From the IMG/VR virus record IMGVR_UViG_3300009068_000023: 64,000 nucleotides of DNA; one strand, written 5' to 3'. This DNA is from a virus. Positions 56,800 to 59,700 of the stretch are shown piece by piece. The notes under the pieces are model-generated. The model had not been told where the DNA came from and searched no databases. It worked only from the letters and a program-made list of their open reading frames with translations. How positions within the stretch are numbered: position 1 is the stretch's first letter; each line of letters begins with the position of its first letter. The position numbers and the translations under genes are program-made.

Positions 56800-59700
56800 A
56801 TGGCTAATAATGTTTTTCAAATTAAGCGCACCAGCATGCCTGGGCGCGTGCCTAAAGGCGATCAGTTAGAGATTGGCGAATTAGCCGTTAACCTAGCTGA
56901 CGCAATCCTCTATACAAAAGACACATCAAATACAGTCATTGAGCTCACATCACCAAACAAAGGTGATAAGGGCGAAACCGGCGACAAAGGTGAGCAAGGC
57001 TTCACCGGAGATAAAGGTGAAACCGGCGACAAGGGACAAAAAGGCACTACCGGCGATAAGGGTAATACTGGTGACAAAGGTGACACCGGAGATAAGGGGG
57101 ACACTGGCTCTAAGGGGCAAAAAGGTACTATTGGTGACAAGGGTGACAAAGGTGAATTAGGAGATAAAGGTCAAAAAGGCGAGCAGGTTACTGGTGCTAC
57201 GTATACAGACGCTAATAACACTACCACCTTCACCAACAGTGATTCAACCACATTCCACGTAACTGGTCTTAAAGGTCGAAAAGGTGAAATCGGGGACAAG
57301 GGTCTCAAAGGGGAGGTAGGTGACAAGGGTGATATCGGATCTAAAGGTGATAAAGGAGATACCGGTACCACTGGTAGTAAAGGTGACAAAGGTGAGATTG
57401 GTGACAAGGGCTCCACGGGCGACAAAGGCGATACCGGAGACAAGGGTCAGAAAGGTAATAAGGGAGACATAGGAGACAAAGGCGATACTGGTGCCAAGGG
57501 TACGGATGGTACATTTGGCGGCGCTACATTTAACTACAACTTCTTAACAAATACAACTAGTGTTGATCCAACAGCTGGATACTTAAAGCTAAGCAACACT
57601 AACTACGCAAGTGCAGCAAACCTTTATATCAACATTGTTGATCAGCTCTCAGCGAACGTATATTCGTTCCTCCAAACAATAGATGACTCAACATCGCAGA
57701 TAAAAGGCACGTTTAAGATTACAAGCCAAAGCAACAGTCTTGCTTTCGCGCTGTTCAATATTGTTGGATCACACACATACGTAGATAGCTACTTTAGTGT
57801 ACCGGTCTCATACCTCTCAACAACCGCTGCGTTTAGTAATAACGATCCTATCTTTATCACATTTGCTAGAACCGGTGATGTAGGTGATAAGGGCGACAAG
57901 GGTACTGCCGGCGATAAAGGTGACAAGGGCGATACCGGATCCAAAGGCGATACCGGTCAGAAGGGTGATACTGGATCTAAGGGTGACAAAGGTATAACTG
58001 GTGATACCGGATCCAAAGGCGATAAGGGCGAAGTAGGCGACAAGGGTGATAAGGGCGAGATAGGAACCACCGGGGATAAGGGCGATAAAGGTCAAAAAGG
58101 TACCACCGGTGATAAGGGTATCGCAGGTGCTCAAGTTACCAGTGCAACTTATACCGATGCTAACAATACTATTGTTTTTACTAATAATGATACAACTACA
58201 TTTAGTGTTACAGGTGTCAAGGGTCAGCAAGGTGATACCGGCTCTAAAGGCGACACCGGAACCAAGGGTGACAAAGGTAATACCGGGGACAAAGGGGACA
58301 CTGGCTCTAAGGGAGATACCGGCTCTAAGGGAAATATCGGTGATAAAGGAGACAAAGGTGATACCGGCTTCAAGGGAGACAAGGGGGATACCGGGTCTAA
58401 AGGTGATACCGGATCCAAAGGCGATAAAGGTGAAATAGGCGACAAGGGTAATGCAACAACACTAATAGACGTACAGTTTACCGCTAGTACAGGTCAAACA
58501 GTATTTACTCTACCTACTGCAGTCAATCTTCTTAGCCCTAGTGTCTTCATAAACGGGATACTATTAGCTAATACAGACTTTACATCTAATACTACTGCCA
58601 TTACTTTAGTTGATGGTGCAGCTAATAATGATATTATTTCTATTAAAGGTTTTGACGATACAGTAAATCCAAAGGGTGAGAAGGGAGAGAAAGGTCTCTA
58701 TGTAGCGTCGTATCAAATAGTAGAAAGATATACCGCTTCAGCTAGTCAGACTACTTTCTATTTTAACAGCCCTCCACTCTATACACCATTAGTTTATAAG
58801 AATGGTATACTGCTTTCTAATACAGTTTACACATCTAACACAACATCGATAGTTTTAGGATCAGGTGCTGCTATTAATGACATAGTTACGGTTGTAGGTT
58901 TTGGACAGACCGGAACAAAAGGTGAGCAAGGGGTTAAGGGCGATAAAGGTCAATCTGCTACCCTATTAAACGAGCAATTTACTGCAACTGCCGGTCAGGC
59001 AATATTTACTCTTGCTACTGCTACTAATCTTTTATCTCCAAGCGTATTTGTTAACGGTGTTTTACTAGCTAACACTGATTATACCTCTAACTCATCTTCC
59101 GTAACTCTTTCCTTTGGTGCTACTGAAAATGATACAGTTACAGTTTACGGTTATGATGATACCGTAAATCCAAAGGGGGAAAAGGGCGAGAAGGGACTTT
59201 ATACTGCATCATACCAAGTAGTTGAGAGATATACAGCTGCAAATAATCAAAATACTTTCTATTTTGATAGCCCGCCACTATATACTCCTCTAATTTACGT
59301 TAACGGTGTTTTATTATCAAACTCAGTCTACACTTCCAACACTACGTCGATAGTTTTATCCCTTAATGCATCTAATAACGATATTATCACAGTTGTTGGC
59401 TTTGGTCAAACAGGCACTAAAGGTGAGAAGGGTAATAAGGGTGAAGCAGGAACTAATGGAGCCAATGGTGCAAAGGGAGACAAAGGAACAGATTATTTCC
59501 AAGTAAGAGAAGAATATATTGCTGCTAATAATCAAACAGAATTCTTCTATTATAGCCCACCTATAAATAGTCCATCTGTTTATGCTAATGGTGTATTGTT
59601 AAGTAGTGATGTTTATTCCTCAAATAGTACAAGCTTTACATTAGCAACACCTGTAGCAAATAATACAATGGTAATTGTCTACGGATTTACACAATCTGGA

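Follow-up and report, generated by a model that had tools for sequence, protein, structure and literature searches.

A collagen-like tract in the IMG/VR virus record IMGVR_UViG_3300009068_000023 raises the question of whether the lysine (Lys) that fills the Y positions of its Gly-X-Y triplets serves to hold a proline (Pro)-poor triple helix together, to receive a modification, or both. The tract lies in a window of 64,000 nucleotides (nt), by which we mean the whole stretch of DNA analyzed, and forms the first collagen block of a gene referred to here as fibre D. Directly upstream of fibre D is a gene for a putative lysyl hydroxylase fused to two collagen-type glycosyltransferases (GTs). We propose that this enzyme probably acts on five dispersed fibre proteins, whose Lys-rich composition would not in itself require it. 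The features on which the argument depends are listed below (aa, amino acids).

56962-57186, + strand: the tract, collagen block 1 of fibre D, 25 Gly-X-Y triplets by translation
54806-56770, + strand: putative modifying enzyme, 654 aa, GT25, PLOD-GT and lysyl hydroxylase domains, 30 bp upstream of fibre D
56800-59817, + strand: fibre D, 1005 aa, Pfam Collagen (E 6.9e-52), DUF4183, PHROG tail-fibre families
56962-57186, 57265-57525, 57874-58134, 58213-58455, 58903-58956 and 59404-59493, + strand: the six collagen blocks of fibre D
59817-61112, + strand: fibre E, 431 aa, Mtd_N-type fibre N-terminus, collagen block 60006-60104, PHROG tail-fibre family
46176-48605, + strand: fibre C, 809 aa, collagen blocks 47058-47264, 47640-47828 and 48213-48257, PHROG tail-fibre family
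6461-7576, + strand: fibre B, 371 aa, collagen blocks 6593-6664 and 6743-6913, PHROG tail-fibre family
2463-3446, + strand: fibre A, 327 aa, collagen blocks 2601-2699 and 2778-2912, PHROG tail-fibre family

A sequence-only reading of this DNA had counted by hand 25 uninterrupted triplets in the tract, with Lys at 14 of the Y positions, threonine (Thr) at seven and Pro at none, and translation gave the same numbers; the remaining four Y residues are Gln, Ile, Leu and Gln. A scan of all open reading frames (ORFs) likewise recovered the GDK/GSK/GQK/GDT vocabulary that it had described in the five genes starting at 2463, 6461, 46176, 56800 and 59817. The tract is one of 14 predicted collagen triple-helix blocks across five tail-fibre genes of a T4-like phage. 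Pooled over these genes, Lys occupies Y in 130 of 239 triplets (54%) and X in none (0/239), Thr accounts for a further 21% of Y, Asp/Glu for 55% of X, and Pro was found at 3 of the 478 X/Y positions. By gene, Lys is at Y in 16/26 triplets of fibre A, 15/27 of fibre B, 24/49 of fibre C, 69/126 of fibre D and 6/11 of fibre E. The blocks of fibre D are separated by globular and DUF4183 domains, and Pro is absent from its 378 collagen residues versus 23 among the 627 residues elsewhere in the protein. Fibre D (173.5 bits) and fibres A, B and C (48.8-63.3 bits) have the long Gly-X-Y repeats of Pfam PF01391 and score above its cut-off of 27.2 bits; fibre E, at 21.2 bits, falls below it yet contains 11 clean triplets. 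All 130 collagen-block Lys at Y in the five genes are followed by Gly and therefore stand in the X-Lys-Gly acceptor context.

The enzyme encoded upstream of fibre D combines three domains. Residues 1-176 correspond to a GT25 domain similar to the catalytic domain of COLGALT1 (E about 1e-14; E92-D93-D94), residues 236-458 to a GT domain of the PLOD/LH3 type (Pfam GT_PLOD, E 3e-57; D311xxD314 and D388-D389-Q390), and residues 477-645 to a lysyl hydroxylase (LH) domain that aligns with LH3 and mimivirus L230. The Fe(II) ligands and the basic residue that binds 2-oxoglutarate (2OG) in such hydroxylases are predicted to be H579, D581, H628 and K638. No metal or substrate residue varies among 20 aligned homologues of the enzyme; this includes K638, another basic residue at the position of Arg729 in LH3 and R887 in L230. 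The three-domain architecture was found in more than 800 metagenomic proteins and in only 11 of 50,697 isolate phage records. At its 5' end, the GTG start of the enzyme gene overlaps the TGA stop (as GTGA) of a small ORF of about 55 aa (54642-54809, + strand), an arrangement that suggests translational coupling.

Because every collagen-block Lys stands in X-Lys-Gly and the neighboring gene encodes a fused lysyl hydroxylase with two collagen-type GTs, the five fibres are probable substrates of this enzyme. To what extent the two kinds of gene occur together elsewhere was addressed in IMG/VR. A search with the enzyme sequence alone returned only 3 loci, and a profile built from the 20-homologue alignment was used instead; it identified 478 relatives, from which 80 loci were retrieved and, with one more from the single-sequence search, 81 were compared, many of them fragments and mutually related. 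An ORF with a collagen run was present in 64 of the 81 enzyme-anchored loci and in all 23 of those having at least 8 kb on both sides of the enzyme, with a median enzyme-to-collagen gap of 575 bp and a shared strand in 64/64 loci. Enzyme and collagen genes thus travel together, but the reverse fails, as Lys-rich collagens exist without the enzyme. Over the 64 enzyme-linked loci, 2,370 of 8,506 triplets have Lys at Y and none has it at X; the per-locus median for Y is 0.37. At 60% identity the enzyme loci form 17 lineages with differing X vocabularies (Asp/Glu, Pro, Ser/Gln, Ala, Asn); Lys is found exclusively at Y in all 17, and its frequency there is at least 0.2 in 14 of them. In Roseobacter phage CRP-6, whose genome is siphovirus-sized, the enzyme likewise stands two genes away from a collagen fibre, 26 of whose 99 triplets have Lys at Y. 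One enzyme lineage is exceptional (IMG/VR loci L017-L028), with collagens of 200-330 triplets in which Gln takes 0.55 of Y and Lys only 0.04-0.13.

The sequence-only reading had proposed comparing Y-position frequencies between phages with and without the enzyme. As an arbitrary sample we took, in storage order, the first 118 collagen-like loci of viruses in which 12 GGN codons followed one another at a spacing of 9 nt. Lys at Y was higher where an enzyme was linked, with a median of 0.37 in the 64 enzyme-linked loci versus 0.01 in 115 others. Y frequencies in the arbitrary sample were Thr 0.29, Ser 0.17, Gln 0.17, Lys 0.066 and Pro 0.03. Since a sample drawn in this way itself has Thr at 0.29 and Pro at 0.03, a Y position rich in Thr and poor in Pro is a general property of viral collagens; Thr triplets (TGA/TGP) have also been reported as anomalously frequent in bacteria and viruses (PMC11923368). 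When the 106 parent records of the sample were searched with the enzyme profile, a multi-domain enzyme was found in only two, L168 and L184, of which the first has the highest Lys at Y of the whole sample (0.57) and the second 0.24. Among T4-like relatives, found via the baseplate gp6 protein, two with the enzyme have Lys at Y of 0.45 (G107) and 0.40 (G109), and one without it (G129, 94% complete) has huge collagen genes with a Tyr/Ser-rich vocabulary and Lys at only 19 of 647 Y positions (0.03). Of the cyanophage isolates, S-CAM9, S-PRM1 and S-8S53 carry the enzyme together with a collagen gene, and S-RIM8, Syn33 and P-RSM1 carry neither; in other cyanophages, tblastn with fibre E picked up nothing beyond the 45 residues of its N-terminal domain and thereby provided no homologous-fibre controls.

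Two further observations were made on these records. The contig of L168 (L206:493-2757) encodes a 754-aa variant enzyme, with GT4, GT25 and an LH-like oxygenase but without PLOD-GT, alongside a collagen of 284 triplets. Collagen ORFs as long as 2161 aa are found in the enzyme-less T4-like record IMGVR_UViG_3300025723_001543 (157 kb; L310, L315, L319, L323, L327); their aromatic vocabulary (GYT/GSQ/GYW type) is unusual, with Tyr occupying X in 30% of triplets and Trp present as well. We also considered the absence of Lys from X (0/8,506 triplets versus 123 in the arbitrary sample) as a signature of the hydroxylase, and dropped it, since Lys is likewise almost absent from X in those enzyme-less collagens whose Y positions are Lys-rich. 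Lys at X characterizes a separate, GKD-type class (up to 0.43 in the viral sample).

A composition that is special, or that depends on the enzyme, was not supported. The nearest DNA look-alikes of the tract among isolates are tail fibres of Erwinia jumbo phages (including Ea35-70, Simmy50, RAY and Desertfox), Vibrio phages BD1/BD5 and Pseudomonas jumbo phages, none of which is among the 11 enzyme-bearing isolate records. In the 126 triplets of Simmy50 gp307, Lys takes 0.48 and Thr 0.17 of the Y positions, Asp/Glu takes 0.54 of X, and Pro is scarce; GDK-type collagens also occur in Cronobacter phage Csp-D17 (Lys at Y 0.25) and Cellulophaga phage phi13:1 (0.33). The enzyme profile, which does recover the enzyme in positive cases, had no match in the complete genomes of Simmy50 (271 kb), Csp-D17 and phi13:1. 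Near-complete IMG/VR genomes lacking the enzyme gave Lys at Y of 0.38 (G007) and 0.21-0.25 (G022). Equally Lys-rich collagens in enzyme-less phages, which the sequence-only reading had named as one half of what would speak against it, are therefore real, as in Simmy50. Because enzyme-less phages are equally Lys-rich, composition alone is no pointer to modification; to judge from its sequence, the tract belongs to a known and common class of phage collagen that has no need of the enzyme to be Lys-rich.

A difference between the two groups was found in the residues that follow Lys. KGD/KGE triplets are anomalously frequent in all collagens, where salt bridges confer kinetic stability, and KGD is the commonest viral collagen triplet, with 13% of the triplets of viral collagen-like proteins (PMC11923368). 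In the window, Gly-Asp/Glu follows 95 of the 130 Lys at Y (73%) versus acidic residues at 56% of all next-X positions, which places Lys-Gly-Asp/Glu in the five fibre genes above compositional expectation, as in the KGD/KGE class. The pairing is complete in fibre C (24/24) and fibre E and partial in fibre D (45/69); the 35 Lys at Y without an acidic partner are in fibre D (24), fibre B (6) and fibre A (5). The feature DISCRIMINATING, the KG[DE] fraction of Lys at Y, was compared between enzyme-less and enzyme-linked collagens. It ranged from 0.81 to 1.00 (median 0.94) in 14 enzyme-less loci, versus 0.15 to 0.91 (median 0.58) in 19 enzyme-linked groups, with several lineages at 0.15-0.35 (Mann-Whitney p = 2e-6, uncorrected for relatedness). 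In Simmy50, Gly-Asp/Glu follows 56/60 Lys at Y. Without the enzyme, then, Lys occurs only as one half of a salt-bridge pair, whereas many of the Lys in enzyme-linked collagens are unpaired.

These results are best accommodated if Lys at Y has two roles. The KGD/KGE arrangement would form inter-chain salt bridges that hold a hydroxyproline-free collagen together, and the enzyme would convert some of the Lys at Y to hydroxylysine, and then to galactosyl- and glucosyl-galactosyl-hydroxylysine, during fibre synthesis. Because hydroxylation spares the amino group, the two roles can coexist. The enzyme would then be an add-on to a pre-existing collagen type and not the cause of its Lys-richness, and may permit extra Lys without an acidic partner, such as the 35 seen here. 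We lean towards both roles holding in this phage and regard this as rather probable. Gene linkage, enrichment of Lys at Y, relaxed pairing and the mimivirus precedent described below all lend good support to the proposed link between enzyme and substrate. The suggestion of the sequence-only reading that one phage enzyme serves several dispersed collagen substrates is thus probably correct, given the neighboring gene at 30 bp, the conserved catalytic residues, the collagen ORF in 23/23 loci, the shared strand in 64/64, the restriction of Lys to Y and the medians of 0.37 versus 0.01. The broader proposition, that phages with the fused enzyme decorate their tail-fibre collagens with glucosyl-galactosyl-hydroxylysine and that these collagens have co-evolved with it, released from the need for an acidic partner at each Lys that enzyme-less phages observe at about 94%, and with unpaired Lys accumulating as glycosylation sites, we judge to be evenly balanced.

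The strongest competing explanation is that Lys at Y does nothing but pair with Asp/Glu at the next X position, the enzyme modifying few or none of these Lys or acting elsewhere. Several lines of evidence agree with this: nearly three quarters of the Lys at Y in the window stand in KG[DE], the enzyme-less Simmy50, Csp-D17, phi13:1, G007 and G022 share the vocabulary and are 85-100% paired, the closest isolate DNA look-alikes of the tract come from the fibres of Erwinia, Vibrio and Pseudomonas phages that lack the enzyme, and published work on the folding code reads such collagens likewise (PMC11923368). However, salt bridges alone leave unexplained why the enzyme gene so constantly has a collagen neighbor on the same strand, why so many Lys are unpaired in enzyme-linked collagens and why three intact collagen-specific catalytic domains are kept in more than 800 homologues, and we consider this explanation unlikely, if the most serious of the alternatives.

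Less likely still, and in our view distinctly improbable, is that Lys at Y is favored because stability demands its hydroxylation and glycosylation, such that an unmodified fibre would not fold. The strong enrichment of Lys at Y in enzyme-linked collagens would be expected on this account, as would the near absence of Lys from the collagens of the enzyme-less T4-like G129 and the division of the cyanophage isolates into three with enzyme and collagen and three with neither. It is opposed by viable isolates of the Simmy50 type, which make GDK collagens of 126 triplets with the same Lys-rich, Thr-containing and Pro-poor composition in the absence of the enzyme, and by the fact that most Lys at Y in the window already have a salt-bridge partner.

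A compositional artefact, in which low GC content and replication slippage gave rise to AAA-rich repeats whose position was unselected, has a negligible probability, for although the window has a GC content of about 38-41% and tandem repeats were detected, position-specific Lys (0/239 triplets at X) and synonymous divergence contradict it, as does the occurrence of the pattern in five genes and in 17 enzyme lineages with differing X vocabularies. Because tandem-repeat units match each other at only 68-86%, collagen tracts of different fibre genes are 66-74% identical in DNA, and codons are mixed (Lys AAA 84/AAG 46, four Gly codons and mixed Asp codons), the Lys-at-Y pattern is maintained by selection and not by recent DNA amplification. 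Fibres A and B are paralogous (68% DNA identity over 611 nt). Antisense ORFs across the tract (e.g. 56910-57149) are mirror images of the repeat.

Several observations weigh against a modifying role of the enzyme on these fibres. The pairing in the window (0.73) is only slightly under the enzyme-less range of 0.81-1.00, and fibres C and E are fully paired. Complete genomes of enzyme-less phages contain GDK collagens that are equally Lys-rich (Simmy50, 0.48), and in enzyme-less collagens rich in Lys at Y, Lys at X is nearly absent too, so that this absence is non-discriminating. The hydroxylase carries Lys where LH3 and L230 have the 2OG-binding Arg. Many of the records compared are fragmentary and mutually related, and a limited literature search found no paper that deals with hydroxylysine in phage fibres.

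The window is the part of a T4-like myovirus genome that encodes structural proteins, among them those of the baseplate wedge, the tail lysozyme and the fibres. Relatives of its phage are cyanophages and uncultured lake or marine phages, and a megablast search of the enzyme-fibre region against phage isolates gave no match. In addition to the five fibre genes, the following features were recorded.

48944-50518, + strand: sixth Gly-rich gene, 524 aa, GNA/GTG/GSP vocabulary, weak Collagen match (29.7 bits)
2429-2436: T4-type late-promoter motif TATAAATA, 27 nt before fibre A
56632-56639: T4-type late-promoter motif TATAAATA, about 160 nt before fibre D
59562-59569: T4-type late-promoter motif TATAAATA, about 250 nt before fibre E

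The sixth Gly-rich gene was absent from the list of the earlier reading, and its product matched no PHROG family. It has 83 triplets, with Asn/Thr/Ser at X and Ala/Gly/Pro/Ser at Y, Lys at only 3 of the 83 Y positions and Pro in 19 triplets; it provides an internal contrast and is probably not a Lys substrate. Between this gene and the three-domain enzyme are two stand-alone 2OG-Fe(II) oxygenase genes (50786-51367 and 51349-51966, + strand) encoding proteins of about 200 aa with matches to PF13640 (E 2e-11 and 1e-14), and S-CAM9, S-PRM1 and S-8S53 likewise have two such genes directly upstream of the enzyme. These oxygenases may be further hydroxylases of fibre proteins, the neighboring gene having Pro at Y. 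In S-PRM1 (L216:25428-26219) and S-8S53 (L217:28880-29581), nucleotide-sugar epimerase genes are found a few kb downstream of the enzyme and could supply UDP-galactose. At fibre B, a gene for a Redoxin/AhpC-type thiol peroxidase (5941-6468, + strand; E 2e-15) ends within the start of the fibre gene at 6461, and may be linked to oxygenase chemistry. The positions of TATAAATA ahead of fibres A, D and E are suggestive only, because the motif is rarer in the window than expected by chance (6 observed versus 11.9 expected) and not enriched.

The composition of these collagens is ordinary, that of a charge-paired, hydroxyproline-free class which occurs in many phages and whose features have already been published; any wider importance would lie in their link to the enzyme. 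Should this link be true, it would represent the first post-translational collagen maturation pathway in a bacterial virus and a new way of tuning the surface chemistry of a fibre. Were the fibres modified, bacteriophages would be carrying out, in the cytoplasm of bacteria, a collagen maturation chemistry that until now has been demonstrated only for animals and mimivirus; an enzyme of 654 aa with short, Pro-free substrates that fold in the absence of prolyl hydroxylase would also be a convenient tool for producing modified recombinant collagen. At the same time, the look-alikes of the Erwinia Ea35-70 type and the pairing contrast (0.94 versus 0.58) caution against reading Lys at Y alone as a sign of modification.

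Among known systems, the fibres of Erwinia jumbo phages (Ea35-70, Simmy50 gp307, RAY, Desertfox) share the GDK/GDT vocabulary of the window, and the enzyme profile was unmatched in Simmy50. In Bacillus anthracis BclA and other collagens with Thr at Y, Thr replaces hydroxyproline at this position, as it does here; BclA is GPT-rich and its Thr is O-glycosylated, and no Thr-specific transferase was identified here. Much of the Lys of Streptococcus pyogenes Scl2 is at X (GKD type), unlike that of the window collagens, which is only at Y. As here, Scl2 and other bacterial or prophage collagens are described as forming a hydroxyproline-free helix through Lys-Asp/Glu electrostatics (PMC11923368 citing Mohs et al.; PMC3368898). 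Bacterial dioxygenases have previously been predicted to modify collagen-like proteins (Iyer et al. 2010; PMC2938197). Animal collagen, modified by LH3/PLOD3 and COLGALT1, has the same X-Lys-Gly acceptor, and the enzyme domains in the window match LH3 at E 2.5e-49 and COLGALT1 at E 1e-14. However, animal collagens are rich in Pro and hydroxyproline, most of their Lys stays unmodified, and the enzymes, each a protein of its own in the endoplasmic reticulum, form a complex.

The closest parallel is mimivirus, in whose genome several scattered genes also encode Pro-poor collagen-like proteins with Lys at Y (L71, R196, R239-R241, L668, L669) and which has its own lysyl hydroxylase and collagen-type GTs, one enzyme there serving many substrates (PMC9614988, PMC9546862). 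L230 hydroxylates and glucosylates Lys in these Pro-poor viral collagens, hydroxylysine is found in virions, R699 adds glucose to galactosyl-hydroxylysine, and R655 is GLT25D-like (PMC9614988, PMC9546862). The mimivirus host is eukaryotic and its collagens belong to the capsid fibril layer, in contrast to the tail fibres of a bacteriophage here. The mimivirus activities also reside on separate proteins, namely L230, in which GT25-like and LH domains place glucose directly onto hydroxylysine, R699 of the PLOD-GT type and the GT25-like R655. The enzyme in the window does not have the organization of an L230 orthologue (895 aa, with an N-terminal GT25-like domain, a long linker and a C-terminal LH domain), as a PLOD-type GT intervenes within its 654 aa, and the LH domain of L230 matches it only at E 5e-10. 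Three domains that mimivirus distributes over several proteins are thus fused here in a single chain, with Lys and not Arg as the 2OG-binding residue, and the activity demonstrated for mimivirus is predicted for the phage.

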